DNA from: an uncultured Verrucomicrobiae bacterium
Lineage (GTDB): Bacteria; Verrucomicrobiota; Verrucomicrobiia; Limisphaerales; Palsa-1400
DNA: 64,000 bases
Direction: 5' to 3'
NCBI GenBank assembly: GCA_963702845.1
Contig: OY969763.1
Coordinates: 2,752,001 to 2,816,000, forward strand
Shown here: in pieces, positions 6,758 to 64,000 of the stretch
Layout: every line of letters begins with the position of its first letter
Position numbering within the stretch: position 1 is the stretch's first letter
Made by a program: the position numbers and the translations under genes
The notes under the pieces: model-generated
What the model saw: the letters and a program-made list of their open reading frames with translations, nothing else
Database searches by the model: none
Told to the model about the DNA's origin: nothing

Positions 6758-8257
6758 TTAATAGCCGACGGTGATTTCCAGGGGTTGATGTTTTTGTTTC
6801 GTGGCGCGCACGGCCAGCGACAGGGACCAGAAGCGGTCGGAGTGGCCGGATTCGCTGTGGTCGGCGGTGAAGCGGGTGTTGCCGCTGCTGGTGGGTTCTT
6901 TTCTAATCGCGCGGAGGTCGGCGCGGATTTCTGGAGAGCTCGGGATTTTTATGGTGCGGTCTTCGAAGGCCATGCGCACGGGATAGGCGAGCTCTTCTTT
7001 CATGGCCTGGGTGAAGGTGATGCCTTCAACTTTGTATTTACCGAATTTTTGTTGGGCGCGTTTGGTGAATTGACGACCGATGCCGGTTTGGTCGATGCAG
7101 CAGCGTTTGACGATGGGGAGGGCTAAGAGTTCGTAGAGGGCGGCTTCTTGTGCTTCGAAGGGTTCTTTTTCGAAAACCTGGATCGCGGCGGTGTGATAGG
7201 TGCTGCCGCGTTTGTCGAGGACCCAGATGACGGTGAGGTCTTTGTCGCGGCCGATGTCGACGCCGATGTAGAGTTCGGAGTCTTTGGAGAGGAGGGAGGG
7301 ATCGCAGGACCAGGATGAGGATTGCGAATTGGGGATTTCGGATTGCGGATTGGAAATATCAGAGGAGGCGGAATGGGAATCATGGGAAGAATGGGAATTA
7401 TGTGGGTATTCGGCGGCGGTGATTAGGTCGTAGCTGAGGAAGGCGCTAGCTTCGTCGGCGGAGATGCACATGTATTCCTGGTTGAAGGTTTCTACGTCGA
7501 TGGCGTCGCGACGTTTGAAGTCGAAGTATTCGGCTTCGTCCATTTGTTGGACGAAATGGTTTTCGGGCAGCGCACACTGAATTTTGAAGAGGCCGCCCTG
7601 GTCGAGAAATCGTTGGAGGGTGATTTTGTGGTAGCTGAATTTTTTCGGGTTGCCGTTGTGTTCGATGTCCATTTGCATCCGATGGAACAACGTGCTGGAA
7701 CCGCGTGGGGTGGAGAATATTTCGATGTCGCCGCCCCAATCGCCGCCGGGCATGGCGATGGAAATGAGTTTCTCCTGCTGTTCGTGGAGAGCCAATTCGT
7801 CGATGATGCGGCTGCCGCGTTTGCCGGCTTGAGCGTCGGGATTTGAAGATAAGGAGTGGATGCGGTTGCCGTTGGCGAAGGTGACGCAGTCTTGGGTGAC
7901 GGATTTGATTAAATTTTTTCCGAAGTTGCCGGCGGAGAGGATGCGATCCCATTTTTCGACGTCTTCGAGGAGGAGGCATGCTTGTTTGGCGTCGCGGCTG
8001 GTGGCCCATGTGTCGCGCCCGGGATTGCCGAAGGCGAGGATGAGGTAGCTGCGAAGGGTGGTGATGTCGGACCAGCCGAACTGACGGCCTTTGACGCAGA
8101 ATTTGCGCGGGGAGGTGTCGTTTATCCAAGCGGCCTGATTGGGAAGTAAATAATGGGCGGGCCGGATTTTCGCTTTGCCGATGTGTTTAGTAGCGGCCTG
8201 TGCGGCGATGGTGTCGAGGTAGTCGTAGAGTGAAGTGATTTGTGAATTGGTTTGCAT
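6758..8257 (-). CDS. phage terminase large subunit, Mu gp28-like (orphan)
   Basis: LLPNQAAW Q-motif, KGRQFGWS Walker A variant, IIDELA Walker B, FSTP, nuclease YIGVDIGRDKD, IDQTGIG, HSDRFWSL. Confidence 0.9.
   Translation of the reverse strand: MQTNSQITSLYDYLDTIAAQAATKHIGKAKIRPAHYLLPNQAAWINDTSPRKFCVKGRQFGWSDITTLRSYLILAFGNPGRDTWATSRDAKQACLLLEDVEKWDRILSAGNFGKNLIKSVTQDCVTFANGNRIHSLSSNPDAQAGKRGSRIIDELALHEQQEKLISIAMPGGDWGGDIEIFSTPRGSSTLFHRMQMDIEHNGNPKKFSYHKITLQRFLDQGGLFKIQCALPENHFVQQMDEAEYFDFKRRDAIDVETFNQEYMCISADEASAFLSYDLITAAEYPHNSHSSHDSHSASSDISNPQSEIPNSQSSSWSCDPSLLSKDSELYIGVDIGRDKDLTVIWVLDKRGSTYHTAAIQVFEKEPFEAQEAALYELLALPIVKRCCIDQTGIGRQFTKRAQQKFGKYKVEGITFTQAMKEELAYPVRMAFEDRTIKIPSSPEIRADLRAIRKEPTSSGNTRFTADHSESGHSDRFWSLSLAVRATKQKHQPLEITVGY
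7320..7408. repeat. 7-bp and 9-bp tandem repeats inserted in frame inside the terminase gene
   Basis: GATTGCG AATTGGG GATTTCG GATTGCG GATTGGA (7320-7354) and ATGGGAATC ATGGGAAGA ATGGGAATT ATGTGGGTA (7373-7408). Confidence 0.8.
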
Positions 8258-8300
8258 AACATCTTTTGGTTTTGGTTGAAAAAAGTTGAAATGGCTGAAC

Positions 8301-9080
8301 TTAGGTTGAACGGCTTTCGGTGCGAGCCGGAGCCAACCATGAGTCCGGCAGGTTGAGGGACGCTTTCACCGCCTGGCGTCCGAATTCGGTTGGGCCGGCC
8401 TCGGCGTCTCCGCGAAGTTTCTCGCGCAGCAGTTTGATGCGGTCGTCGCGTTGGCGATCCAAGGAACGAGTGTGAGTGGCGCGGACGAATTTGAAAAATT
8501 CCAGAGGATCTTTCTGTAATTCTTGTTTGAGAACAATGGGATCGAAGTCGCGCATGATTTGAGCCATGTGCAGGTCGATCAAGCGGCCGTTAACGTAGTT
8601 GGCGCGGTTTTGGCCATTGGCGTCGAGATGGCGAAAGTATTGGTCGGTTTCATCCATCCTAAGTCTGAGGCACTGGAAGCGTTCACGTTCTTCCAACCAA
8701 AGTTTGTAGCCTGATTGTTTCCACATGGAGAGGTTGTTTGATGCGATGCCGGGGTGGCCTTTTTCGGTGACGGATTGGATGATGTTTTTGTACGGGACGT
8801 TGTCGTGCAGGGATTCGTTGATGAAGTCGCGGATGGCGGTGGGGAGCTCGCTGATTTTGCTGCGGTGCGGGCGGTGGCGATGTTTTGGTTTGGGCGCGGT
8901 GGCGGAAGTTGATGGCGATGGCGTGGGTTCAGCCGTCCCTTCGGGACTTATATCGTTCTTCGCTTCACCCCGGCACTCAAGTGCCGGACTAGGTTCAGTT
9001 GTGCCTTCGGCACACAAGATGGTGGCGGCGATTGTTGATTCAGTGTTTGTCGGTTCGGCGGTTGTTGTTTCGGTGTTCAT
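8301..9080 (-). CDS. Mu gp27/DUF3486-like protein, putative terminase small subunit, with disordered N-terminus
   Basis: RSKISELPTAIRDFINESL...PYKNIIQ...NLSMWKQSGY resembles the DUF3486 N-terminus; lies directly upstream of the gp28-like gene; start could be 9116. Confidence 0.7.
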   Translation of the reverse strand: MNTETTTAEPTNTESTIAATILCAEGTTEPSPALECRGEAKNDISPEGTAEPTPSPSTSATAPKPKHRHRPHRSKISELPTAIRDFINESLHDNVPYKNIIQSVTEKGHPGIASNNLSMWKQSGYKLWLEERERFQCLRLRMDETDQYFRHLDANGQNRANYVNGRLIDLHMAQIMRDFDPIVLKQELQKDPLEFFKFVRATHTRSLDRQRDDRIKLLREKLRGDAEAGPTEFGRQAVKASLNLPDSWLAPARTESRST

Positions 9081-9247
9081 ATATCTACTTTTTGAGGATG
9101 AGTGTAACAACGTCACTTGGACAAAGGCTGTCCAAGTGAAAATATTTGTGCAGAAAGTTTGCGAGGGGTGGGAATGGTCCCAATTTGTTTATTAGGAGGA
9201 GGTTGCGCGTATTGTTTTGTCTGAGGGGATGGGAGAAGAGGATTTTT

Positions 9248-42000: not shown

Positions 42001-45000
42001 CTGAGAGGAGTCCCACCTTTTGACCATTGATAGGTGAATGGCGCGTCGCCGGTTACAGCAATCGTGAACACGGCATTGGCGCCGGTCGCGACTGTCTTAT
42101 TCGCAGGAGCCGTCGCTGTGATAACGGGCGCCTGAACGGGACCAAAGCGGACGCCGCGCAGTAATTGATTAGGGCCGGCAGTCGATAACACGGTCGGCGT
42201 TGAACCGGAACCGCCATCAACAATGCGAACGAGACTGTTCGCCTGCGCCGCTGCTGTCGTTGCATAGAGAATCGCGCCAGTTACACCGGTGCCCCAGCTC
42301 GTGTTCGCGCTCCAATCTACCGTCAAACAACGAGCGCCATTGGTGCCCCCGGGTAGCGCTTGCAAAGTGTAAGCGTAGGTCCAGCCGCCGGAGGGGCTGT
42401 TGGTGTCGTAGCGTTCGATGCCACCCTTTTGAGAACCATCGTAGGTGCGGTCATCCGCGATGAAGACGGTTTTCAAATCTGGACTGACGGCGAAGTCCTG
42501 GAAGTTGGTGCCGTTCAACGGAGCCAGGAGCAACGATGAATTGGTACTGCCGTTCGCTGCGATTTTCGGCAAGCCCGCGCATACGTTCAGACCAACACTG
42601 CCGGAAGTATCGCAGTATACCAGATTGCCACCGACAATATCGACGCAGTGCGGACCAGCACCGCTGCTCGACGAAATACCCGGAACGCCGCCGCCATTCG
42701 AATAGCTCGCTCCCCACTGCACATACTTAACACCCGCGCTTCCGGCCGCGCCGGCCGTCCAGAAATTCGTTAAGCCGTCGTCCGAAACTGCCGCGCGTAC
42801 GAATTGATTTCCGCCGTTATTGATCCCTTTGTTCGTATACGTTAGCGCGTAGTACCCAAGTGCATTGACAGCACCGATGGCGCGGATCGCGCTGCTACCA
42901 TTATTGACGTTAAAGTTCGTCGACGGATACGCGACGTTGTAACCAATAAAGTTGATATAATTGGTGTTGGCCGAGCGCGTCAGAACGCTCTCGAAGATTC
43001 CATCCGACGATCCCATCGTCAGTAGCATGACATTTGTCCCAGTCGGCACTCCTTGGATGGATTGGTCAGTGCCGAACGCGGAGGTCGGCGTGTCGGGAAT
43101 CATGATCGTGCTGACATATCCACCACTGGTATCAAACTGATCAAGGTAAAGGGTGTTGCCAATGGTCGCGTTCAACGTCTGTGAACCGTCGCCGACGCGT
43201 GCGACAATCAGGTTTGCTGAGGACATTCGCAGGTAATCGGTCGAGACATTCAACGTGCCACTCGCCGTCGCCGGGATTCCAGCAGCATTATTCACGGTCA
43301 CAGCGTAAGTTCCCGCGTCACTCGTCTGAATACTGCTCAGCGTTAACACGCTTGTCGTTTGACCTAGAAGGTTATTGCCATTGTGCGTCCAGGAATAGGT
43401 GAAGGGCGATGTCCCGGTTGCGCTCGCTACAAACGCGAGGTGATCGCCGACTCTTTGTGTTCGCGTCGCTGGAGTTACGGAAACCGACGCTGGAACATTA
43501 ACCGTCAGGATGGCACTGCTACTGGTTGCGGTAGCGGTGCTAGCAGCGCTGGTAACTCTAACACTATAACTGCCAGCGTCCGTTGTTTGAGCGCCTGAGA
43601 TTGTAATTACCGAGGTCGCCGCGCCAGAAATCGAGCCGCCGTTGTTAAGCTGGTTGGCGCCCTTATACCACTGATAGTTCAGCGTGGGCGACCCGTTTGC
43701 GGTGACACTGAAATTAGCCGTATTGCCGAGTACCACAGCAGTTGAGGAAGGTGGTGTAACGACGTACGGATCATTCACCGTCAGCACTGCTGAGCTTGAA
43801 GTACTACCCGCTGTGTCGGTAATCAAAACCGTGTAACTGCCTGCATCTTGATAATTGACGCCTGAAATTGTCAGCGCCGAGGTCGTGGCACCCGAAACCG
43901 TCGCGCCCGAGCCGGAGATGCTGGCGCCATTGCTCAAGTTATTCGCACCCAGTTGCCATTGATACGACAAGCCAGTCGCGCCGGCCGCCGAAACGGTGAA
44001 TTTGGCGGTTTGGCCATAGTTGACGTTCGTATTGGCTGGCGGGGTGACAACACCCGGATCCGTAACTGTCAATGAAACGGTTGAACTGGTAACACTCGCA
44101 CCATAGACGTTCGACACCACACACGTGAACGTTTCACCACTGTCGGCTATTTGCGCGTTCCCGATCGTCAAATTAGCTGATTGTGATCCGGAAATAGTCG
44201 CACCCGTTGCACTTGGACTTGCGCCGTCAGTCAGGTTCGCTCCATTCATCTTCCATTGGTAGGTTACCGGCTGGCTGCCGTTCGCTGTCACCGAGAAGTT
44301 TGCCGATCCGGTGGGATACGTAACCTGCGGCGTCGGCTGCGAGGAAATGGAAGGATCAGAAACTGTAATGACTGCAGGCGAGCTGGTGATGGAAGAAATC
44401 GCATCTGTGGCAATAGCGGTGTAACTAGCCGAATCCTGTGAAGTTACTCCAGCGATTGTCAGTGAGGCTGTTTGCGAGCCAGAGACAACCGCGCCGTCAG
44501 GCAAGGTGCTGTCGGTGAGGTTCACACCATTGCGTTGCCACTGGTAACCGTTCATCGTAATACCACCGGCAACCGCCTTGGCACTGAGCGTCACGGTAGT
44601 GCCCAATGCGTAGGTACCCGAAGCAGGTTGGTTGGTGAACTCAGGGCCGCCGGTGACATATGCCCACGTCGTTCCCATGCGCATACTTCCTATCACAACG
44701 CCATTCGTTGGAGTGCTGTTGGCACCGCGTGCCAACATAAACCAACCTGCCGCGTTGGTAAGAATTCCGCCGCCGTTTGGAACCAGATGATTCACCAATT
44801 CGGTTGGCGGTGTGGCTATGCCGAATGAAGCTGTCGGCGGATCAACCCACAAACGCATCCAGTCATTTGTTACCGTGTTGGAAGTATTAGTTCCGCCAAA
44901 TTCATAGCTCATAACCACGAAATAAGTCGTGTTGCTGATCATGTATCCGTTGTTATTCGGGATTGGCGAGGCCAGCAAATTCGTGGATTTGGCGGCGGTA

Positions 45001-45635
45001 CCGAAGCCGCCACTGCTGTCACCCCAACCAATCTGGAATGCATTTGTCCCAATGTTGCTCCCATTAACGTTATTACTACTCGCCCAGAAAAACCGCGCGG
45101 TATTACCATTGACAGAGCCGTTGAACGTTTGTGTCACTTGTCCGCTTGGCACCATCCCCATCAGATATATACCTGACCCAGCAGCATTCGCGGTCGGAAG
45201 ACTCATTAGAAACGACACGTAAACTTTGTTGGTCGTACTGGTGTTCGACGGCGGATATACGACTTTGCTGAAATTGAGCGTCGCTCCAGGACCATTGCTG
45301 CTGCTACTTCCGATGTTCGGCAAGAATGCGCATTGATTCGGCTCGGGGAATCCGGAGGGAATCTGCGAAACACCGAGCGCGTTGGTGTAATGCAGGGTAA
45401 TATTGGTGATTGAGACCGGTAATTTGGTAGCGGCAGGGCTGCCGGCAAACCAGAACTCTCCCATGCCGTTCGTCTGGTTAGCCAATTGCGCTTTGTTGGT
45501 GTAACTGGTGGTTGCCGACCAACCGTTGGTATCGCCGACCGTGGAGTTTGTTATGCTGACAAACGGTTCGTATGTAGGAAACGCGAATAGCGTCGGCGCG
45601 ATCGCCAGCGCCAGTAAGGTGAGGGTCTTTTTCAT
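39048..45635 (-). CDS. giant secreted immunoglobulin-repeat surface protein (about 2195 aa)
   Basis: signal peptide MKKTLTLL, more than ten Ig I-set-like repeats (YQW..NG, D.GSY.V), one RVGDG domain, C-terminal InlB B-repeat-like domain. Confidence 0.88.
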   Translation of the reverse strand: MKKTLTLLALAIAPTLFAFPTYEPFVSITNSTVGDTNGWSATTSYTNKAQLANQTNGMGEFWFAGSPAATKLPVSITNITLHYTNALGVSQIPSGFPEPNQCAFLPNIGSSSSNGPGATLNFSKVVYPPSNTSTTNKVYVSFLMSLPTANAAGSGIYLMGMVPSGQVTQTFNGSVNGNTARFFWASSNNVNGSNIGTNAFQIGWGDSSGGFGTAAKSTNLLASPIPNNNGYMISNTTYFVVMSYEFGGTNTSNTVTNDWMRLWVDPPTASFGIATPPTELVNHLVPNGGGILTNAAGWFMLARGANSTPTNGVVIGSMRMGTTWAYVTGGPEFTNQPASGTYALGTTVTLSAKAVAGGITMNGYQWQRNGVNLTDSTLPDGAVVSGSQTASLTIAGVTSQDSASYTAIATDAISSITSSPAVITVSDPSISSQPTPQVTYPTGSANFSVTANGSQPVTYQWKMNGANLTDGASPSATGATISGSQSANLTIGNAQIADSGETFTCVVSNVYGASVTSSTVSLTVTDPGVVTPPANTNVNYGQTAKFTVSAAGATGLSYQWQLGANNLSNGASISGSGATVSGATTSALTISGVNYQDAGSYTVLITDTAGSTSSSAVLTVNDPYVVTPPSSTAVVLGNTANFSVTANGSPTLNYQWYKGANQLNNGGSISGAATSVITISGAQTTDAGSYSVRVTSAASTATATSSSAILTVNVPASVSVTPATRTQRVGDHLAFVASATGTSPFTYSWTHNGNNLLGQTTSVLTLSSIQTSDAGTYAVTVNNAAGIPATASGTLNVSTDYLRMSSANLIVARVGDGSQTLNATIGNTLYLDQFDTSGGYVSTIMIPDTPTSAFGTDQSIQGVPTGTNVMLLTMGSSDGIFESVLTRSANTNYINFIGYNVAYPSTNFNVNNGSSAIRAIGAVNALGYYALTYTNKGINNGGNQFVRAAVSDDGLTNFWTAGAAGSAGVKYVQWGASYSNGGGVPGISSSSGAGPHCVDIVGGNLVYCDTSGSVGLNVCAGLPKIAANGSTNSSLLLAPLNGTNFQDFAVSPDLKTVFIADDRTYDGSQKGGIERYDTNSPSGGWTYAYTLQALPGGTNGARCLTVDWSANTSWGTGVTGAILYATTAAAQANSLVRIVDGGSGSTPTVLSTAGPNQLLRGVRFGPVQAPVITATAPANKTVATGANAVFTIAVTGDAPFTYQWSKGGTPLSNGGNIVGATTSALTITGASAADIDTYTVVVSDAIPSSVTNSATLTVIDGVTITSPPASATANYGDTVTFSATATGGGTITYKWKKNGVNLTDGGIVSGSSTPSLTLTGVAFADHGSYTIAVTNEASSASSTAILTVNDPLVVTSPANVSANAGDNIGFACIATGSGTLTYAWSLNGTPLIDGAGASGASYSGTHTAALSINGVLQGDEGSFTCTVSGSGTPATTAAATLTVQDPVITANPVSLTRATGHSATFSVTAIGTGLTYQWLKDNNPISGETAASTTIASVTSGDTGAYSCVVTGPDGSPTSFAASLTVIDPVALTGPDNATNGFAQTTVFTVVANGTAPFTYSWIKDGNPVTDNGTTIVGATSASLTITNLQDSDAGSYTVTANNADSTASATATLVVIDPFIVVNPQNTTVNCGGGTCLAVVATSSDALTYQWFTPDANGTAITDATNSTLCFTNVDALSAGRFAVVVTGTSGSVTSAVAIVAVNACGPGIIGQPVGQTINAGTTLTLTVVATGLDATYQWSKDNIAIDGATNAIYSKTDVTGADSGSYVCAVTANNITQSTTAAVVSVNDPAVNIQPVNVVATTKSNITFSITAGGTGPLTYQWYFVKNGTTTPKKMVKSATIPAVTNATLSINNVANAANGGSYYCTVTNSLHSGATSISATLTVYDAPLVKIAPPSKTLLAGFNYTMVAKVTKGALNQTLSYQWNKNGNAISGATTSTYSLVDVQTANTAVYSCVVSNNSPTGGTASLSLTVTQDTEVPKVVLLLKPTDMAAKHALTTNDVPVDPTGTNHAPDVDFLGKAVDKGLIVSAWVSNAVNQAVFPATFVKKVTDLTATNTAAGKPAFFLSHVSMVDGTNIFWGLATDSDGNTSTTTKGTHMFFIANPQALTLATSGTGRITSVTDATSKNWGNPTNTAVLAVGHNYTIKATPIGRGITFQKWTVSDSTGPLADQLANPLTFTMSLGRTNTAVFSNHP

Positions 45636-45658
45636 ACTGGTTTTTTGGGATGTCCCCA

Positions 45659-45684
45659 TCAGGCTGAATACCGATTCAGCCTGA
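45659..45684. other. intergenic 11-bp hairpin (possible mRNA processing or stability element)
   Basis: TCAGGCTGAAT-ACCG-ATTCAGCCTGA between the two giant genes; no U-tract directly after it. Confidence 0.55.
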
Positions 45685-45737
45685 AGGCGTAGTTTTGGTT
45701 TTAGGGTCTTGGTTTTGAGACTCAGGGTTACTGGGAA

Positions 45738-48700
45738 CTACGGAATCGTAATCGTGTAAAACTGCTGTTTGAATGCAGGAGCGTTAGTATCGGTAAAACT
45801 GTCGGCGCCCCCAGTGAAGGCTCCGTTGGCCAACAAAGTCCAAGTCGATGTAATCGGTTTCAGCGCGACGTTGGTACTGCCCCACACCCGGTAGCTGCTG
45901 CCGGCGGTTCCGCTGAAATTAAGTTGCACCGTTTTGTCAGGGTTCACGACCACGGGACTCGTGCCACCGCCACCGAATTGCGAGAAGACAACTGTTAAAG
46001 CCCCAGCGGTGCTCGTGGCAGAACCGCTCGGATTTGGATTGCTGACAATCACGCTGAAATTGTCGCTTGAATCACCCACTGCGACATGGCTTACGGTCAA
46101 GACCGCGCTGGTGGATCCTGAAATGATTGCGCCGGTGCCTGATGGACTCGGGCCGTCGGTTAATGGATTGCCGTTGCGTTGCCACTGATATGTAAACGGT
46201 CCGCCCGCAGCAGAAACGGTAAAGGTCGCGCTCGTACCGACACCGGCAGTTACATTTTGTGGTGGAGTCACGATGGTCACGCCCGCCGGACCAGGACCGA
46301 AACGCATGCCGCGATACAATTGGTTCGGGCCCGCTGCCGCAAGGACCGTCCCAGTCGACCCAGGACCATTGTCAACAATTCGGACAATGCGATTTGTCGA
46401 TGCTTCCGACGTGGTCGCATAAATGACGGCGCCATTGACGCTTGGTCCCCAGCTTCCGCTGGCGCTGTAATCGACGACGATGCAGCGCGCGCCCCCCAAA
46501 GAATTGCCACCCGTCGCAAGTGTATAGGACAGGACGTAAGTTCCGCCGACATTGTCCCAGCGTTCGATTCCGCCATAACCCGCGCCGGTGGTGTAATTTT
46601 CGTCATCCGCGATATAAACCGTCGCCACGTCCGGGCTGATTGAAAAGTCGTTAGGGCTCGCCGTCGGCCCCACGTTGATAACCAACGTCGGGGTAGCCGT
46701 AGTGTTGGGCAAACCTGTCAACGCATTCAATCCAGTCATGCCGTTATCACCAACGTCGGTAAACGCAAGGTTACCATGCGGCGTGATGTCAACGACGCGA
46801 GTTCCGGACAAGCCGCCGGCAATCGCAGTGGTTGCCCCGCCGTTGTGCAGGTACTTCATGCCTGCAACGGTGCTCGCCGAACCTGTCGTCCAGAACTGGC
46901 TAATGCCATCAGATGATACAGCGCAACGGAATTGCGTGCTGGCGTTGTAGAGCCCCACGTTGGTAATTGCCAGGGAATAGGCGCCGTAGGCGTCGACCGC
47001 AGCCATGCCACGGACCGTGCCGGCATTTCCATTGCCATAGCCAACGCCGGTCGGTCCATTATAGGGCTGCGATACGTTGAATCCGGACAAGTTCAAATAA
47101 CTGGCGTTTTGTGACAACGTCATCACGTTTTCGGTCAACGCATCCGAACCACCAGCACCGATCAGCGCATTGGGCAACGTGTCCGGGATCATGATCGTGT
47201 TGACGTACGTGCCGTTGGGTTTGAATTGATCGAGATAAATGGTGTTCCCTGTAAAACTGCTCAATCCCTGTGAGCCGTCGCCGACGCGCACTGCGACAAT
47301 GTTCGTTGGATAGAGATTCTGCAAACCAGAGGTGACGGTCAATGTCGCCGAGTTGGTTACTGAGCCGTTCGGAGTTGTAATCCTCACGGCATAAGTTCCC
47401 GAATCGGAAGTTTGGATGTTGCTCAGCGCAAGAACGTTGTTCGTTCCGGAAATCGGCGAGCCATTCTTCGTCCAGGAGTAAGTAAATGGCGGAGTCCCGA
47501 GTGCCACGACTGTAAAAGCCATGTGATCACCGGCAGTTTCGACGCGCGATTGCAACGGGGTCAGCACCACCGGCGGCGCCGCGATGACGGAAACGACCGC
47601 AACCTGGCTGGTCGCACCGCTCGGCAGCGGATCACTGACGACGACGGAATAGCTGCCAGAATCAGAAGTTTGGGCGTTGGTGATCGAAAGGACGGAGTCG
47701 GTCGCGCCTGAGAGATTAACTCCGTTCTTTTTCCATTGATATGAGAACGGAGCATCACCAGTTGCGGCGACGCTCAGGCTGACGGTCTGCGCGACGAAGT
47801 TGGTTTGGGTTTGCGGCTGTGTGGTAATCTGTATAGGCACTGCCACGGGGCCAAAACGCACACCGCGCAAAATCTGGTTGGGTCCGGCTGCGGTCAGGAC
47901 ACTCGCGGCTGAACCTGAGCCGTTATCGACAATTTTAACGAGGCTATTATTTTTGCCCGAAGTGGTCGCGTAGATGATTGCGCCGTTGACACCAGGTCCC
48001 CATACCGTATTCGCGCTAAAATCAACAGTCATACAAGAAGCACCGTTTGTTCCCGCGCCCGACGCCAGAGTGTAACTATAGGTCCATCCACCGGAGGCGC
48101 TGTTCGTGTCCCAACGTTGGATTCCGCCCGCTTGCGTGCCGTCATAAACGCGATCATCCGCGATATAGATCGTTTGCAGATCCGGGCTCGCTGCAAAATC
48201 AACGGGACTGCCGCCCTGATTGAGAACCAGTGTTGATGCTACTGTTCCACTAGTTGGTTTAGGCAATCCATTGAAAGCATTAAGACCGATATTGTTAGTT
48301 GAATCTGTAAAGACGACATTGCCGCCGACGATGTCTACCACGCGAGTGCCAGGACCGCTGCCTGAAAGCCCGGGCACGCCGCTTCCTGTGGCATAGCTCG
48401 CAACACCGACCTGCACATACTTGAGCCCTCCTGAACTTGCCGCACCTGTCGTCCAGAAATCTACCAGCCCATCGTCTGAAACAGCGGAGCGAATGAATTG
48501 ACTGCCGCCGGAATAAAGGCCGAAATTGGTGTAAGCCAATTGGTAATAACCAATGGCATTCACCGCACCGATGCCGCGAATATCTGCCGTGCCGTTAATC
48601 GGATTGGCGACAGCGGGGATGGATACATTGTAAGCTGCAAAATTAAGGTATTGTTGATTGGCAGAACGGGTCAGCACATTTTCGTAAAACGCATCAGCTC

Positions 48701-51230
48701 CCGCGCCAAGCGCGCTCAACATCACGTTCTGGCCGATGTTCACACCGGCAATCGATTGCGACCCGAACGATGCCGTTGGCGCGTCTGGAATCATAATGGT
48801 GCTGACGTAACTACCGTCAGTCTGGAACTGGTCGAGATAAAGCGTGTTTCCAGTGGTGTTGTTCAAACTTTGCGCGCCGTCACCTACTCGCGATACGATC
48901 AGATTGTTCGTCTGCAAGCGGATCAAATTCGTAACGACGTTCAACGTCGCGCTCGCGCTCGGACCTGTTCCAGCCGCGTTGCTGATCGTGACTGAATAAG
49001 TTCCAGCACTGCCAAGTTGGATATTTGCCAAATTCAGCGCGCTCGAGGTTTGACTTGGGATGGCCGTTCCGTTCTGTGACCACGTATATGAGAACGGGCC
49101 GGTGCCGGAAGCAGTTACTACAATAGCAAGATGGTCTCCGACGCGTTGGGTGCGCGTGGCGGGGAAAATAGAACTGATTGTCGCAGGCACAACCGCTGTG
49201 AAAACAGCATTGCTGCTGGTGACAACCTGGCCGCTCGGACCAGAAACAGTCACTGAATAGGTTCCTGAATCAGCGACAGTCGCAGTAGAAATAGTGAGAG
49301 TCGCTGCTGTCGAACCGGAAAGTGTCGAGCCATTTCCAGTGTCGCCGTTTGCTAAGGGAGTCGCTCCTTTGAACCACTGGTATGTCGGGGTCGGCGAGCC
49401 CGCCACCGTAACTGACAAATTGCCAGTCGTCCCCGCCGCAACGCTGGAGGAAACCGGCTGCGTAACAATGTAAGGGTCGTTAACCGTCAATGTTGCTGGG
49501 GAACTTGTGGCGGAATGCGGCTGCGAATCCCCGTGGTTGTTGGTTACGACGCAACTGTAACTGGTCTGGTCTGTATAAGCGACACTGCTCAACGTTAGTG
49601 TGGCGGTTTTTGTCCCAGTCACTGTGCCGCCGCCACCAGTTGGCGCGCCTTCAGCGAGGTTTACGCCATTGGCCTGCCATTGATAGCTAAACGGTGCCGT
49701 TCCACCGGCAATGATACTGAACCCAGCAGTCTGCCCGTAATTCACCGTGACATTCGTAGGCTGGCTCGTAACGACCGGATCTTGCACCACCAGAACCGCG
49801 TCGGAACTGGTCACTGAACCGCCCAAGGTATTGTTAACGACAACCGAGTAAGACGCCGAATCCGCAGTGGTGACATGTAAAAGTGTCAGCGTGGCGCTTT
49901 GCGACCCAACGATATGAGTCCCATTGTCGGCCAGATTGGAGCCGTTGATACGCCATTGATAAGTTATTCCTGTGCCATAAGCAGTAACACCAATGATGGC
50001 ATTTTGGCCTGTAGGAACATTTTGACTGGGAGGTTGCACGGCGATGTAAGGATCATTGACCGTGATCACCGCCACCGAACTGGTAATAGAAAAATTATTG
50101 ATCGGAGTGCTGGCAACGACCGAATAACTGTCGGCATCATGTGCCTGAGTTACGCCGGTAAGAGTCAAAACCGCCGTTTTTGCGCCGGACACATTCCCGC
50201 CGTTGCTCATTGGGGTTGCGCCCTTATACCACTGATAAGAAAGCGCCGTGCCGGAGGATGCCACACCGACTTTGATAACCGCGTTGCTCCCGGCGTTGAC
50301 GACCTGGTTTGTAGGCTGGTTAGTGATAGAGGCACCGCCGGTCACGTAAGCCCAGGTATCGCCAATACGAAATTCTCCGATGACAGTAGTCTTGGGAGCG
50401 GTCGTGAAGGCATTACCGAGCAAAAACCGAAAAATAGTTGGCGTGGCGCCAATCCCGTTTCCGTTAACAAACATTGTCGGTGCCGGTGCGGTTGCGGAAG
50501 CGAACGTTGTCGACGAAGGGTTGACCCAGCACGCGCCAGTCGCAGTGGCAGTGCTGGAATTGGTTATGTACTGCATCACGACAAAAACGACTTCATTGGT
50601 CGAGTGAGTCACAGGACTGCCGCCGGAAGTTTCGAACGAATAAGCGGTAGTGGAACTATTGGCGACGGCGAGTTGGTAGTGTTGGTTGTCGGCGCCTTGT
50701 CTCAACGCAAGCTTTCCAGCGAGTGAGGACGGAGTATTTGCCTGAGAAGTATTGCCGTTGTTGGCGTCATTGAACGCAGTGACCCAGGGAAGGGCACTTG
50801 TTGCCGTAGACGCGGGGAGCGAACTGGCGTCGGCGACTTGAAGGAGATAGGATACAAAAACGTTGGTGAATCCCCCGCTCCCTTTTTGAATCACTAAACC
50901 CGCGCCCGGCGCGTTGACATTTGTCAACACCACGGCTTTGCCGGAAGGCGCTGGAAACCCAGCGGGGAAACCGCCGTAAGTAAGATTGCTGTTGGCAACT
51001 CTCACAAAATTGGCACCGGGACTTGTGGTGGTATTAATCCCGAACCAAATATCGCCGTTAATGTTAGTTTGGCCGCCCACGTTGGGGGAATTGGTTCCGC
51101 CTAGAGGCGAGCCGGCGAGATACAAACTTCCACCGCCAGCGCTAGCATCAGAAAATTGGTCAAACGTTGGGTAACAAACCGCGACTGAAGCGGAGCTTAA
51201 CAGCAGTGATAGGATAAATAATTTCTTCAT
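45738..51230 (-). CDS. giant secreted immunoglobulin-repeat surface protein (1830 aa)
   Basis: signal peptide, Ig repeats, two RVGDG domains, C-terminal GSTN...W...FTDTN...FY domain. Confidence 0.9.
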   Translation of the reverse strand: MKKLFILSLLLSSASVAVCYPTFDQFSDASAGGGSLYLAGSPLGGTNSPNVGGQTNINGDIWFGINTTTSPGANFVRVANSNLTYGGFPAGFPAPSGKAVVLTNVNAPGAGLVIQKGSGGFTNVFVSYLLQVADASSLPASTATSALPWVTAFNDANNGNTSQANTPSSLAGKLALRQGADNQHYQLAVANSSTTAYSFETSGGSPVTHSTNEVVFVVMQYITNSSTATATGACWVNPSSTTFASATAPAPTMFVNGNGIGATPTIFRFLLGNAFTTAPKTTVIGEFRIGDTWAYVTGGASITNQPTNQVVNAGSNAVIKVGVASSGTALSYQWYKGATPMSNGGNVSGAKTAVLTLTGVTQAHDADSYSVVASTPINNFSITSSVAVITVNDPYIAVQPPSQNVPTGQNAIIGVTAYGTGITYQWRINGSNLADNGTHIVGSQSATLTLLHVTTADSASYSVVVNNTLGGSVTSSDAVLVVQDPVVTSQPTNVTVNYGQTAGFSIIAGGTAPFSYQWQANGVNLAEGAPTGGGGTVTGTKTATLTLSSVAYTDQTSYSCVVTNNHGDSQPHSATSSPATLTVNDPYIVTQPVSSSVAAGTTGNLSVTVAGSPTPTYQWFKGATPLANGDTGNGSTLSGSTAATLTISTATVADSGTYSVTVSGPSGQVVTSSNAVFTAVVPATISSIFPATRTQRVGDHLAIVVTASGTGPFSYTWSQNGTAIPSQTSSALNLANIQLGSAGTYSVTISNAAGTGPSASATLNVVTNLIRLQTNNLIVSRVGDGAQSLNNTTGNTLYLDQFQTDGSYVSTIMIPDAPTASFGSQSIAGVNIGQNVMLSALGAGADAFYENVLTRSANQQYLNFAAYNVSIPAVANPINGTADIRGIGAVNAIGYYQLAYTNFGLYSGGSQFIRSAVSDDGLVDFWTTGAASSGGLKYVQVGVASYATGSGVPGLSGSGPGTRVVDIVGGNVVFTDSTNNIGLNAFNGLPKPTSGTVASTLVLNQGGSPVDFAASPDLQTIYIADDRVYDGTQAGGIQRWDTNSASGGWTYSYTLASGAGTNGASCMTVDFSANTVWGPGVNGAIIYATTSGKNNSLVKIVDNGSGSAASVLTAAGPNQILRGVRFGPVAVPIQITTQPQTQTNFVAQTVSLSVAATGDAPFSYQWKKNGVNLSGATDSVLSITNAQTSDSGSYSVVVSDPLPSGATSQVAVVSVIAAPPVVLTPLQSRVETAGDHMAFTVVALGTPPFTYSWTKNGSPISGTNNVLALSNIQTSDSGTYAVRITTPNGSVTNSATLTVTSGLQNLYPTNIVAVRVGDGSQGLSSFTGNTIYLDQFKPNGTYVNTIMIPDTLPNALIGAGGSDALTENVMTLSQNASYLNLSGFNVSQPYNGPTGVGYGNGNAGTVRGMAAVDAYGAYSLAITNVGLYNASTQFRCAVSSDGISQFWTTGSASTVAGMKYLHNGGATTAIAGGLSGTRVVDITPHGNLAFTDVGDNGMTGLNALTGLPNTTATPTLVINVGPTASPNDFSISPDVATVYIADDENYTTGAGYGGIERWDNVGGTYVLSYTLATGGNSLGGARCIVVDYSASGSWGPSVNGAVIYATTSEASTNRIVRIVDNGPGSTGTVLAAAGPNQLYRGMRFGPGPAGVTIVTPPQNVTAGVGTSATFTVSAAGGPFTYQWQRNGNPLTDGPSPSGTGAIISGSTSAVLTVSHVAVGDSSDNFSVIVSNPNPSGSATSTAGALTVVFSQFGGGGTSPVVVNPDKTVQLNFSGTAGSSYRVWGSTNVALKPITSTWTLLANGAFTGGADSFTDTNAPAFKQQFYTITIP

Positions 51231-60477: not shown

Positions 60478-61854
60478 CTAGAACAGTTCGTTGATTGGTT
60501 GCGTCCCAAAATCGACGACCGGGAACGGCCGCGACTGCGGTCCAGGCAGCTTAGTTTCCAGATCAACGCCTACAGATTTGAGGATGGTCGCGACGACTTC
60601 AGACGGTTTCACGGGCCGCTCGGTTGGATATGCACCAATGTCGTCGCTCTTGCCGACGACACGACCGCCTTTCACCCCACCACCGGCAAAATTGATTGTC
60701 CAACATTGCGGCCAGTGATCGCGACCGCCGGCCGGGTTTACTTTTGGCGTGCGACCGAATTCGGCGAGGCAGGCGATCATCGTCTTATCCAACATGCCGC
60801 GCTGGAACAAATCTTCGAGCAGCGCCGTGTAGCCCTGGTCATACATCGGCGCGACGATGTCTTTCATTCCAGCAATGGACGTGAAGGGTTTCGAGCCGTG
60901 AATATCCCACGTGATTTCATCGAACACGGTGATGAACGTGTTGATGGTGACGAAACGCACGCCGCGTTCGACAAGACGGCGAGCGAGCAAACAACTTTGG
61001 CCAAATCGCGTCATGCCATAACGATCACGGACTTTTTGCGGTTCTTTCTCGAGGTCAAATGCCTCGCGCGCCTTGCTGCTCGTCATCAGGCGATAGGCCG
61101 ACGCGAAGTTTGTATCCATCAACTGCGCGTTCGGGCTGGCTTCGAAATTCTTCACCGCATCGTCAACCACCTGGCGCAATTCGCGACGGCGTTCGAGGCG
61201 GGCTTCGCCAATTTCGGTCGGCGGCAAAAGATCTGGAACTTTGAAACCTTTCTTCGAAGGGTCAGCATTCAGCACGAATGGGTCAAATGACTTGCCGAGG
61301 AACCCGGCGTCCTGGCCATGCGGCATGTTTCCGCCGGTCGGGCCCATCGGCTCGGGCAGAATAATATTGGCAGGCAACTCGTTACGGCGGCCTTTCAAAA
61401 ACTCCAACGCGCACCCGACATGCGGCGTATTAACTCCGCCCGTAAATAACCGCCCTGTCTGCATCAACTGATGCCCACCATCGTGCACCGCCGGACCGGT
61501 GTGATAACAACTGCGCACCAGCGAAAATTTGTCGGCGTGTTTGGCGTGGAGCGGGAAAATCTCTGAAATCTGAATGTCCGGATTGTTCGTCCTGATCGGC
61601 TTGAATGGCCCGCGAATTTCCGCTGGCGCATCCGGTTTCATATCCCACGTATCGATCTGGCTGGGCGCGCCGAGATTAAAAATCATGATGCACGAACGAT
61701 CGTCATTTCCCTTAGGTGCGGCGCCCATCGCCTGAAGTTCCGCAAACTTCGATAGCGATAATCCAATCGCGCCCAGCGTGCCGACCTGAAGGAAGTCGCG
61801 ACGGGTTATTCCGTCGCAAGTCGTGATCGAACCTCTGCCGGTGAACTTGAGCAT
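60478..61854 (-). CDS. DUF1501 domain protein (Tat-type signal)
   Basis: ITRRDFL, GAPSQIDTWDMKP, ARRLVERGV, WDIH, EFGRTP, GRDHW. Confidence 0.93.
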   Translation of the reverse strand: MLKFTGRGSITTCDGITRRDFLQVGTLGAIGLSLSKFAELQAMGAAPKGNDDRSCIMIFNLGAPSQIDTWDMKPDAPAEIRGPFKPIRTNNPDIQISEIFPLHAKHADKFSLVRSCYHTGPAVHDGGHQLMQTGRLFTGGVNTPHVGCALEFLKGRRNELPANIILPEPMGPTGGNMPHGQDAGFLGKSFDPFVLNADPSKKGFKVPDLLPPTEIGEARLERRRELRQVVDDAVKNFEASPNAQLMDTNFASAYRLMTSSKAREAFDLEKEPQKVRDRYGMTRFGQSCLLARRLVERGVRFVTINTFITVFDEITWDIHGSKPFTSIAGMKDIVAPMYDQGYTALLEDLFQRGMLDKTMIACLAEFGRTPKVNPAGGRDHWPQCWTINFAGGGVKGGRVVGKSDDIGAYPTERPVKPSEVVATILKSVGVDLETKLPGPQSRPFPVVDFGTQPINELF

Positions 61855-62030
61855 ACGATTATAGACGTAACATCGGACAAAAATATTTGGGCTGCATTTT
61901 AAAAATATCTCTTTCTTGAAATGATTCAATCGCAATCAGTAGTGTCGCGGCCTGTCGGGCGGGACAGATTACTTGCGATTACCTCTGATTACTTCTGATT
62001 ACCTCTTTCGTGTTTTTTCGATTTTCCATA

Positions 62031-62062
62031 AAAGTTAGAGCCTCCTTACGTCGGCTGCTACA
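62031..62062 (-). repeat. GTAG-type REP-like element, copy 2
   Basis: AAAGTTAGAGCCTCCTTACGTCGGCTGCTACA; 31/32 identical to 6668-6699. Confidence 0.85.
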
Positions 62063-62074
62063 TTAGTATAACGA

Positions 62075-62101
62075 CGGACGAAACGGCGTGATCGTCCCTA
62101 C
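62075..62101 (-). repeat. GTAGGG-type REP-like hairpin
   Basis: minus strand GTAG-GGACGA-TCACGCCGTT-TCGTCC-G. Confidence 0.7.
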
Positions 62102-62195
62102 CTGGAAGACATATGCTGGACGGTGTTTTCATGGATCGAGATTACTTGCGATTACCTGTGATTACTTCTGATTACCTTTTTTCATATTTTTCACG

Positions 62196-63590
62196 TCAAA
62201 AACCACGGAGCCTGACTTGGTGGACCTTCTGTGGTTGGGTTGCGATCATGTAACGGAGTGCGTCGGCGGCATCGTCGCCGCCGACACCGGTTTCGTCGGG
62301 ATCGGTTTTCAGGACGTCTTCCGGTCGGTTAGGGTCGCTTTGCAACGTAGGGAGGCAATCGATCAGACGCGAGCAGCGGCGATGGAAAAAGAGTGTTGGT
62401 TTGAGCTTTCCTTCTTCATCGCCGAGACGTTTGAGGATGGCAGCCCAGCCGTTCAGGCGCTCCATATTGGCCTGGCGCATAGAAATTCCCAGTTGCCGGT
62501 ATTGCGATGCAATCGTTGTGCCGTCGCTTTGTTTGCCGAAGATATCAGCGCCTGCGACGAACCTTGCGAGGTTAATCGAATAGCGTTCGTTGAGTCCCAA
62601 GTGATGCCGTTTGAGCATGGCTTTGATCGCCTCTGCGTGACGTTCCGGAATCCAATTACGCGCGGCGTGCTCGTCGACGATGAAGATGTTGTTGTCACTG
62701 TCGCGGCAACCGAGCAGGACGACGGTATAGTGGGTGAAGCCGTAATCAAGCGCAGCGAACCATTCGACGGCGCGGCGGTCGTCGAACTCGTCGATGACGT
62801 GCAATTCCCGGCGGAAGTTGGTGAAGAATTGGCCGGCCTTGATGTCCCAGTCGCCATCCAGCCACGCGCGCCGTTGCCAACCGGTGAGAGAGCCAAGAGC
62901 ATCTTTATATCCGGCGTTGACGAAAGAATTGTCGTTAACGGTCGCTGGGATGAAGCGTGTCTGCTTCTCCTCGCCGCGTTGAAATGGAACGACGTATTTA
63001 GACCGATACCATGCGTGGCCGACACCTCCGGGATTGGTGGTGGAATAGATGCGAGGTCGCCAGCCGGTTTTTGAGGTGCGGTTGCAGGTGCAGATGTCCA
63101 GGAATTTGCGGCTGGTCAGGGTGGTGGCTTCTTCAATGCCTATGACGTCGTATTCGAGCCCTAGATATTTATCGATGTCGTTTTCGTTTTGAAAATGACC
63201 GATGATGATACGTGAGCCGTTTTCGAACGTGAGAACGCCTCGAGTGGTGCTGAACTCGTGGTTGAGCCTGAGGAGAAGACGGCGGCGCAGGTCTTCGAAG
63301 TTTTCGAGGTTGGATTTGCCGACTTTGCGCAGGAGCAAACATTTGAGGCCGGGGAAGCGTTGGCAGTCATCGGTGCCCATCTGAGCGATGAGCCAATGAG
63401 ATTTGCCACCGCCACGCGCACCGCCGAAGCCGATGGAGGTTGGGCCGGTTGCAAGATCGCAAAGGCGCGCGGCGGCACTGGCGGCGAGTTGTTTGGGCTG
63501 AAGTATCACGCCGGCGTTGATGAAGTGCCTTAGCTGATCCGGTGGGCAACCTGCTTCAGTGGCTAAGTTGATGTAGTGTTCGGGAGACAT
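62196..63590 (-). CDS. phage terminase large subunit, PBSX/Terminase_6-like (no portal gene downstream)
   Basis: Q-motif LQPKQ, Walker A GGARGGGKS, Walker B IGIEEA, STTNPGG, nuclease ALDYG and DDAADALRY. Confidence 0.92.
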   Translation of the reverse strand: MSPEHYINLATEAGCPPDQLRHFINAGVILQPKQLAASAAARLCDLATGPTSIGFGGARGGGKSHWLIAQMGTDDCQRFPGLKCLLLRKVGKSNLENFEDLRRRLLLRLNHEFSTTRGVLTFENGSRIIIGHFQNENDIDKYLGLEYDVIGIEEATTLTSRKFLDICTCNRTSKTGWRPRIYSTTNPGGVGHAWYRSKYVVPFQRGEEKQTRFIPATVNDNSFVNAGYKDALGSLTGWQRRAWLDGDWDIKAGQFFTNFRRELHVIDEFDDRRAVEWFAALDYGFTHYTVVLLGCRDSDNNIFIVDEHAARNWIPERHAEAIKAMLKRHHLGLNERYSINLARFVAGADIFGKQSDGTTIASQYRQLGISMRQANMERLNGWAAILKRLGDEEGKLKPTLFFHRRCSRLIDCLPTLQSDPNRPEDVLKTDPDETGVGGDDAADALRYMIATQPQKVHQVRLRGF

Positions 63591-63635
63591 TTGGAAAGAA
63601 AAGTGCCAAGTGATGAGTGATGAGTTTTACTGCAT

Positions 63636-64000
63636 CTAATTTTGGAAATGGGTGCCGTTTGAATTAGCCGTCGCGAGTGGTGGTGGAGGTGGTGGGCAGA
63701 TTTTATTGAGGGCGGCGAGGAGTTCGTTCTGTATGGGTGATAGTGCAGGGCGATCGTCGTCAGTCGTTGGGCTTTGCAGGGCCGAACGGGACATTTTGGA
63801 ACCGATACTCAGGGCGCGCGACAGTTCGGAGATGCGGAATTTTTCGAGGTCGCGATCACCGAAATTTTCGAGGCAACATCGCACCACGTTGAGGAGTTTT
63901 TGTGCGTCTTCCCATTCCTGCTCGCGGTATTCAGCGGTGCGTTTGGCCCAATCAGCAGCAGCTTTCCGAGCCGCTTCTGTTTCAGCCTGCGCTTCCTGTT
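63636..64000 (-). CDS. partial helical protein, putative terminase small subunit (5' end outside the window)
   Basis: frame open to the window edge (QEAQAETEAARKAAADWAKRTAEYREQEWE...); directly upstream of the large terminase. Confidence 0.55.
   Translation of the reverse strand, partial: QEAQAETEAARKAAADWAKRTAEYREQEWEDAQKLLNVVRCCLENFGDRDLEKFRISELSRALSIGSKMSRSALQSPTTDDDRPALSPIQNELLAALNKICPPPPPPLATANSNGTHFQN

Follow-up and report, generated by a model that had tools for sequence, protein, structure and literature searches.

A terminase gene pair stranded among host genes and kept under purifying selection in a Verrucomicrobiae genome

The chromosome of an uncultured Verrucomicrobiae bacterium carries, between ordinary host genes, a pair of terminase genes, terS for the small and terL for the large subunit of a viral DNA-packaging enzyme. 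Both genes are intact and passed on vertically, and purifying selection acts on the pair with about the same strength as on the terL genes of the capsid islands of this genome, i.e., islands that encode a portal and a capsid. We call it copy A. It lies at the end of a 64,000-nucleotide stretch (assembly GCA_963702845.1, contig OY969763.1, positions 2,752,001 to 2,816,000), and this whole stretch is referred to as the window (G000:C1:2752001-2816000 of a single 6.03-Mb contig, G000 being our handle for the genome). Genes were called throughout by a simple rule of the longest open reading frame (ORF), with no gene finder.

The original prediction, made from the letters of the window alone, had proposed a second terminase module in which an intact large subunit is preceded by a helical partner ORF, while host genes take the place of a portal behind it. 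Beyond what was noted there, the present analysis adds the purifying selection, a promoter box that the pair has in common with other genes, and the number of such pairs in the genome.

Intact genes, host flanks and inheritance

The terL gene is a reading frame without stops, and its product, TerL-A, matches Terminase_3 (30.5 bits, cut-off 23.2) and Terminase_6N (30.3 bits, cut-off 22) in Pfam as well as PHROG 2, 'terminase large subunit' (E 5.7e-29), while a sequence search of the PDB with it gave no match at E 1e-3. When TerL-A was aligned with 11 relatives, GGARGGGKSH, YDVIGIEEAT and STTNPGG were conserved, which we take to be the Walker A, Walker B and ATPase coupling motifs, and so were the acidic residues in ALDYGF, VDEHA and GGDDAADALRY, presumably the positions of an RNase H-like nuclease. 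The family matches and motifs bear out the claim of an intact large subunit. The C-terminal 60 residues of TerL-A are very close to those of island terLs in the alignment. The upstream ORF, which the window edge leaves open (63636-63998), proved once its whole length was read to be terS (genome 2815636-2816418, minus strand, 260 aa from ATG), with a match to phrog_6299 'terminase small subunit' at E 1e-20. Two smaller points of the original prediction concern this gene and the spacer behind it: the poly-proline tail is real (the C-terminus reads CPPPPPPL) but is not conserved in a sister species, and the heptamer run in the spacer is indeed present, as a doublet that is trivial. By eye, no Shine-Dalgarno-like sequence was seen in the spacer.

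Downstream of terL, as had been proposed, stand host genes instead of a portal, namely an operon of a DUF1501 gene followed by PSCyt2/PSD1 and WD40 genes (Pfam). For the upstream side the original prediction had named phage genes directly beyond the window edge as the finding that would speak against it, and none was found there: after about 1.1 kb without family matches come sucA, cinA, fur, cytochrome/DUF1501 genes and ATP synthase, and the 18 kb upstream hold ordinary host families only, with no portal, capsid, integrase or replication gene. Family searches over the window and these 18 kb likewise gave no tail, lysis or integration gene near copy A and no homolog of the island proteins, portal, capsid and primase included. 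The pair is thus stranded in both directions, with host genes to either side.

In a second species of the same genus (G002), a 5165-bp contig aligns collinearly with G000 over the DUF1501 gene, terL and terS, intergenic repeats included, and both terminase genes are intact. TerL-A and its syntenic ortholog are 91% identical in amino acids. We estimated the ratio of nonsynonymous to synonymous substitution rates (dN/dS) by the Nei-Gojobori method with our own script. For terL it is 0.110 at a dS of 0.51, almost the same in the ATPase half (0.108) and the nuclease half (0.112); the conserved core of terS gives 0.125 and its disordered N-terminus 0.62. The corresponding values are 0.068 and 0.082 for terL in the island pairs B-C and D-E, and 0.024 (dS 0.98) for the neighbouring DUF1501 gene between G000 and G002. 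Orthologs of the DUF1501 gene are found at 82-96% in five relatives; in the four genomes of other genera that were examined, none of them has a terminase upstream, and in two of these four genomes, G009 and G015, no terL of copy A's family was found. The pair, which sits at the same junction in both species and is missing at the DUF1501 orthologs of the four other-genus genomes, was therefore gained in the ancestor of the genus. The genes that followed terL were lost before the two species split, and the pair has been constrained since.

Terminase families and a shared promoter box

The genome holds 15 terL loci in three families. Copy A belongs to family 1, which has seven full-length copies (A-G, 54-69% identity to copy A) and five C-terminal fragments; family 2 has six loci, including the first module of the window (a_win), which makes copy A the second, and family 3 has two. 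A portal lies within 16 kb of terL at seven of the 15 loci (B-F, b and e) and is missing at another seven (A, G, a_win, c, d, f and x2), x1 being ambiguous. The five loci B-F stand in islands that also code for a portal of 548 aa (PDB 'Portal protein', E 1.5e-43) and for a major capsid protein of 335 aa (E about 1e-74). In these islands the portal and capsid genes lie 4-15 kb downstream of terL, and they are likewise spaced in relatives and in seven of the eight closest IMG/VR contigs, all eight of which are island-type and nearer copy D. The block between terL and portal, 4-15 kb long (e.g., genome 1717049-1732453 in B and 4284360-4295523 in C), is variable and consists mostly of small opposite-strand ORFs, and in B and C it contains the terL 3' end once more, an arrangement that suggests a turnover of cargo anchored at the terL end.

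TerL-A has 65-69% identity to the island terLs, and terS-A is distantly related to the island terS. In the terL phylogeny, which had been put forward as a check, 58 island-type sequences of 68 form one clade (Shimodaira-Hasegawa-like approximate likelihood ratio test support, SH-aLRT, 98). TerL-A and its G002 ortholog fall outside this clade on longer branches, together with copy G and the terLs of two further loci (L053 and L064). These are stranded copies too. The terS-terL pair of copy G lies directly upstream of nuoH-J-K-L-M (genome 6002575-6005197, L010), and in another genome the A/G-type pair of L053 (505-12501) is followed by nuoA-B-C-D...M; two stranded pairs thus adjoin NADH dehydrogenase operons in different genomes, and with 53% identity of L053 to G and 71% to A their orthology is ambiguous. 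The L064 pair stands between two-component and glycosyltransferase genes, and a further A/G-type pair (G174:C34), left out of the tree, is followed by ppdK and other host genes. In the flanks available for these three pairs no portal or capsid homolog was found, and A/G-type terLs keep the catalytic motifs where aligned. As a separate observation, an isolated ORF of 520 aa upstream of the G operon (genome 6005503-7065, L010:17923-19485) combines collagen triple-helix repeats with a Peptidase_S74 chaperone domain, as phage tail fibres typically do.

The eight loci of families 2 and 3 have in common only terL and, in six of them, an upstream ORF of 220-270 aa, which in copy c matches Phage_Mu_Gp27; their flanks are housekeeping genes such as purH, dnaK, folD, gltB and hom-thrC-lysC. 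The first module of the window has a radical-SAM/BATS gene on one side and an FGGY kinase gene on the other, and its best match in G002 is only 71% identical, so that no clear ortholog was seen. Copy b has kept a portal after terL. At locus e (genome 5241332-5249134, L186) an HK97-type capsid, a gp6-like connector and a portal lie upstream of a terL broken by TAG, after which comes gcvH; no other of the 15 terLs is clearly broken. Random decay would be expected to leave random pieces; across the 15 loci the usual survivor is instead the terminase, mostly with a terS-like gene. A repeat of 66-69 bp (GGTAGGGACGATCGCGCGGTTCGCGG...) flanks the terL of x2 in inverted orientation (genome 5838241-5838309 and 5840075-5840140) and recurs at x1 (4753758-4753845), and five of the 11 copies in the genome are close to terL loci. 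Transposon-like ends around the pairs of families 2 and 3 were considered and rejected, none being common to the copies.

Copy A is headed by a 25-bp palindrome, CACTTGGAC-CGTCTTT-GTCCAAGTG, which lies just beyond the window edge (window-equivalent 64443-64467), 24 nt upstream of the terS ATG, and is followed after 7 nt by TAGGGT, a -10-like hexamer. The genome has 29 sites of this box, against a chance expectation of about 0.01 with at most one mismatch (our own estimate) and none for a reversed-pattern control. The sites are uniform: 25 have exact 9-bp arms, 22 the spacer AGCCTTT and 24 a TAnnnT exactly 7 nt downstream, and an ATG comes 5-26 nt further on in all of them. Nine boxes head terS units from three terminase families (those of copies A, a_win, b and c, the operons of G and x2, and three terS-only ORFs); three head the WYL+WCX regulator genes that capsid islands F, B and C carry as their own, the box lying 19 nt before the ATG; and three head repair units, namely mfd, the recA operon and ligA, the last two of which follow a short first ORF. 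The fourth of the four WYL genes in the genome has a degenerate, opposite-facing copy of the box 15 nt before its ATG. Behind the ligA box (genome 40374-41554, L190), the adenylation domain of the NAD-dependent DNA ligase is split over two adjacent ORFs of 187 and 206 aa, which could be a frameshift or an artefact of the ORF rule.

Box sites are also present in the two relatives of the same genus (18 in G002 and four in G001), and there are none in G003, of another genus. The 15 boxed loci of these genomes that were examined include recA (98% identical), thrS, a WYL gene, two DUF3631 genes, three terS-like genes and the ortholog of terS-terL A, where the stems of the box are conserved; six of the 15 had no match in the query set. 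The conservation of the box at orthologous genes argues for a regulon and not a scattered repeat. With up to four changes allowed, the palindrome was not found at the loci of other genera (L023-L182), the six matches being loci of G000 and G002, and other genomes have different hairpins upstream of terS. The palindrome was rejected as a LexA box: LexA_DNA_bind is limited to two short frames of the genome, at 1.99 Mb, where the palindrome is missing.

Known regulons offer a closer likeness. DdaA is described as a WYL activator of the DNA-damage response with a palindromic recA-promoter motif, CGWCA-N5-TGWCG (PMC12392091), PafBC as a WYL activator of such a response that likewise has a palindromic recA-promoter motif (PMC6789036), and DriD as the WYL activator of a DNA-damage regulon (PMC9186387). 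As in these regulons, the motif here is common to recA and repair genes, and regulators of the helix-turn-helix-WYL-WCX type stand behind it. The motif itself differs from that of DdaA (CACTTGGAC-N7-GTCCAAGTG), a third of its sites head terminase genes, and both binding by a regulator and induction are putative here. The sharing of the box with recA and WYL genes, taken together with the known WYL activators, argues that the terS-terL A operon is probably DNA-damage-inducible through a WYL activator.

Surroundings of the pair

The gap between terS and sucA (genome 2816530-2817621, L009:2530-3621) contains two terL 3'-end fragments in the same orientation, as well as repeats also present behind island terLs and at some 40 further places of the genome; its three small ORFs have no family match. 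It looks like the scar of earlier elements. A scan for tRNAs and an Rfam scan (E up to 1) of the 4-5 kb around terS found no tRNA and one sub-threshold small RNA match only. A search of sequencing runs with window 61900-64000 listed no RNA run, and its eight DNA runs contain at most 0.10 of the words of that stretch.

The repeats that the original prediction placed between terL and the DUF1501 operon are there as two GTAATC clusters (Table 1). Their 10-bp unit (GGAGGTAATC / GAAGTAATC) forms tandem arrays at 13 places in the genome, one of which (4505444-4505529) has about nine units. A role of the clusters as a P1-like packaging (pac) site was rejected: the repeat is not terminase-specific because the 13 sites mostly lie directly before the ATG of unrelated genes. 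To judge by their position, these repeats look like dispersed, stacked Shine-Dalgarno-like sequences. Between the two clusters lies a stretch related to the 66-69-bp repeat described above. The RNA of the terL-DUF1501 intergenic region folds no better than shuffled sequences (z = +1.33), and no terminator-like site was called past terL in the region that the scan covered. The ORFs of the window that lie between its two modules belong to ordinary host families, and two giant minus-strand ORFs of 2203 and 1830 aa (39048-51230) are packed with immunoglobulin I-set/Ig_3 repeats.

Table 1. Features of the window named in the text, in window positions
Feature	Position	Strand	Remarks
terL, terminase large subunit, copy A	62196..63590	-	464 aa, intact; Pfam/PHROG matches, motifs, G002 ortholog
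terS-terL spacer, 45 bp	63591..63635	-	CTCATCA twice in tandem; read from sequence
terS, 3' part (last 120 codons and stop)	63636..64000	-	gene continues to window-equivalent 64418
First GTAATC cluster, four units, 10-bp spacing, just past terL stop	62140..62175	-	
Second GTAATC cluster, four units, 10-bp spacing, upstream of DUF1501 gene	61967..62002	-	conserved in G002
DUF1501 gene, first of the downstream host operon (context, outside the module)	60478..61854	-	Pfam E 7e-102
Box copy heading the first module, CACTTGGAC-N7-GTCCAAGTG	9114..9138	-	TACACT 7 nt downstream
terS-like ORF of first module	8301..9080	-	259 aa from ATG; no family match; homologs upstream of 6/8 family-2/3 terLs
terL of first stranded module, family 2	6758..8257	-	499 aa; Terminase_6C E 6e-22; phrog_5909; whole module 6758-9138

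Possible function and competing explanations

On balance, and by a modest degree of confidence, we favour the explanation that copy A is a retained, probably damage-induced two-gene terminase operon left from the packaging module of a capsid island or phage, perhaps serving the capsids of resident islands. The other genes of the module would have been lost before the two species of the genus diverged. The box would be the docking site of a WYL activator of the DriD/PafBC/DdaA type, and DNA damage would switch on the operon together with the resident capsid islands. More tentatively, TerS-A may bind DNA at or near its own gene, and TerL-A, with a portal-facing C-terminus much like that of the island terLs, may dock on island portals and pump the DNA chosen by TerS-A into island-made capsids. 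The outcome might be the export of the neighbouring chromosome, in the manner of lateral transduction or a gene transfer agent (GTA), or else competition with, and spoiling of, island and phage packaging; sequence data do not separate transduction from interference. A wider version of the idea, which we regard as rather doubtful, is that the seven or eight stranded terS-terL operons would be host-kept, damage-induced starters of one-way headful packaging into island capsids, and would form a distributed GTA-like system of which the host owns only the terminases and the WYL-controlled promoters.

Several points weigh against the favoured explanation. The estimate of selection comes from one species pair and a simple Nei-Gojobori count, and the G002 contig stops about 1 kb upstream of terS, so that the far side lies outside its view. 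Purifying selection alone does not name a function, and it is reportedly common on defective-prophage genes (Bobay, Touchon and Rocha are said to have described this in 2014). As to the regulon, nearly half of the boxed units (14 of 29), thrS and a DUF3631 protein among them, fall outside the terminase, WYL and repair groups, and the box is absent within 8 kb upstream of copies D, E, d, e, f and x1. The box is also unusually uniform for a binding site and could be a recently spread promoter cassette, and its opposite strand is scored as a terminator-like hairpin with a T-run.

A first competing explanation is that the pair is neutral debris from a dead prophage or island, not yet erased and with no present function. 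The host genes on both sides, the upstream scar with its terL fragments and island-type repeats, the further terL C-terminal fragments scattered in the genome and the TAG-broken family-2 copy would all agree with it. However, both genes are intact in two species at a dS of 0.5-1.0, their dN/dS of 0.11-0.125 is near that of the island copies, the two terL domains are equally constrained with all catalytic motifs kept, and the box stems are conserved at the orthologous site; we therefore consider a neutral leftover quite unlikely. Nor is it probable, and we would call it very unlikely, that the pair is a selfish small mobile module that copies itself around the chromosome. Many dispersed pairs do occur in unrelated host contexts of one genome, and the inverted 66-69-bp repeat at x2, with nearly half of its copies near terL loci, would be in keeping with this. 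Yet the copies are old (the closest pairs have 74-87% amino acid identity, most 23-69%), homology between them ends at the gene ends with no common terminal repeats or target duplications seen, copy A is at the same junction in two species, and the unit has no transposase or integrase. It is highly improbable that copy A is part of a larger working element with unrecognised genes: although the three small ORFs between terS and sucA lack a family match and genes were called by the longest-ORF rule, the gap spans no more than about 1.1 kb and consists of repeats and terL fragments, the rest of the 18 kb upstream and the 50 kb downstream are ordinary host families, and no homolog of island proteins such as portal, capsid or primase is found there. 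Debris, mobile pair and larger element are thus each disfavoured, by selection, by the age and ends of the copies or by the host flanks.

An anti-phage or anti-island device is a different matter, in that sequence data alone do not separate it from the explanation we favour. Here a host terminase made upon damage would steal capsids or cut concatemers and so lower the yield of the invader. The box common to the terminase pair, the WYL regulators and the island operons is in keeping with this, as are the intact nuclease domain and the DdaA WYL regulon, which couples the DNA-damage response with anti-phage genes (PMC12392091). Against it, none of seven proteins matched the PADLOC models at E 0.01, and a literature search at abstract level gave no defence system that uses a terS-terL pair. 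We consider such a device unlikely.

Compared with known systems, copy A has the same two proteins in the same order as a pac-type tailed phage terminase (TerS and TerL; Terminase_3/Terminase_6N, PHROG 2, PHROG 6299), motifs intact, but it lies outside any phage and is inherited with the host chromosome. It resembles the Verrucomicrobiota capsid islands B-F in its proteins and, for three islands, its box; in contrast to them it has no portal or major capsid gene, and TerL-A falls outside their 58-member clade. With GTAs of the RcGTA type it has in common host-kept, phage-derived packaging genes under purifying selection and, by our reading of the box, a host-type regulon. However, a GTA is a head-tail structural cluster, whereas family searches found no structural genes for one at the copy A locus, which has the terminase only, so that capsids would come from separate, probably mobile, islands. 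In lateral transduction, as seen in Staphylococcus aureus, packaging starts in situ from the pac sites of an intact prophage that acts before excision. A chromosome-fixed terS-terL pair, co-oriented with the host genes downstream, could likewise start one-way headful packaging, although there is no prophage at the site of copy A. Defective-prophage genes, as reportedly described by Bobay, Touchon and Rocha 2014, are alike in being vertically inherited remnants of low dN/dS, but here one and the same two-gene unit, promoter included, has survived again and again, at seven or eight loci and in three terminase families.

Our literature search, again at abstract level, found no published stand-alone terminase pairs under selection and no terminases in a damage regulon, and in a review of exapted mobile elements the word 'terminase' has 0 occurrences (PMC8987985). 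The pair is akin to a domesticated prophage remnant or a GTA-like exaptation, both of which are known kinds.

To our knowledge, lone terminase genes are usually dismissed as prophage debris. Copy A is a lone terminase kept by selection, and it is one of at least seven stranded loci, belonging to three families, in one genome. If the favoured explanation is true, this bacterium keeps only the packaging enzyme of dead viruses and fires it on DNA damage, which would give a testable route to chromosomal gene transfer by way of borrowed capsids, or else a new form of interference with phages and satellites, and would extend WYL-type damage regulons to the Verrucomicrobiota and to the control of mobile elements.

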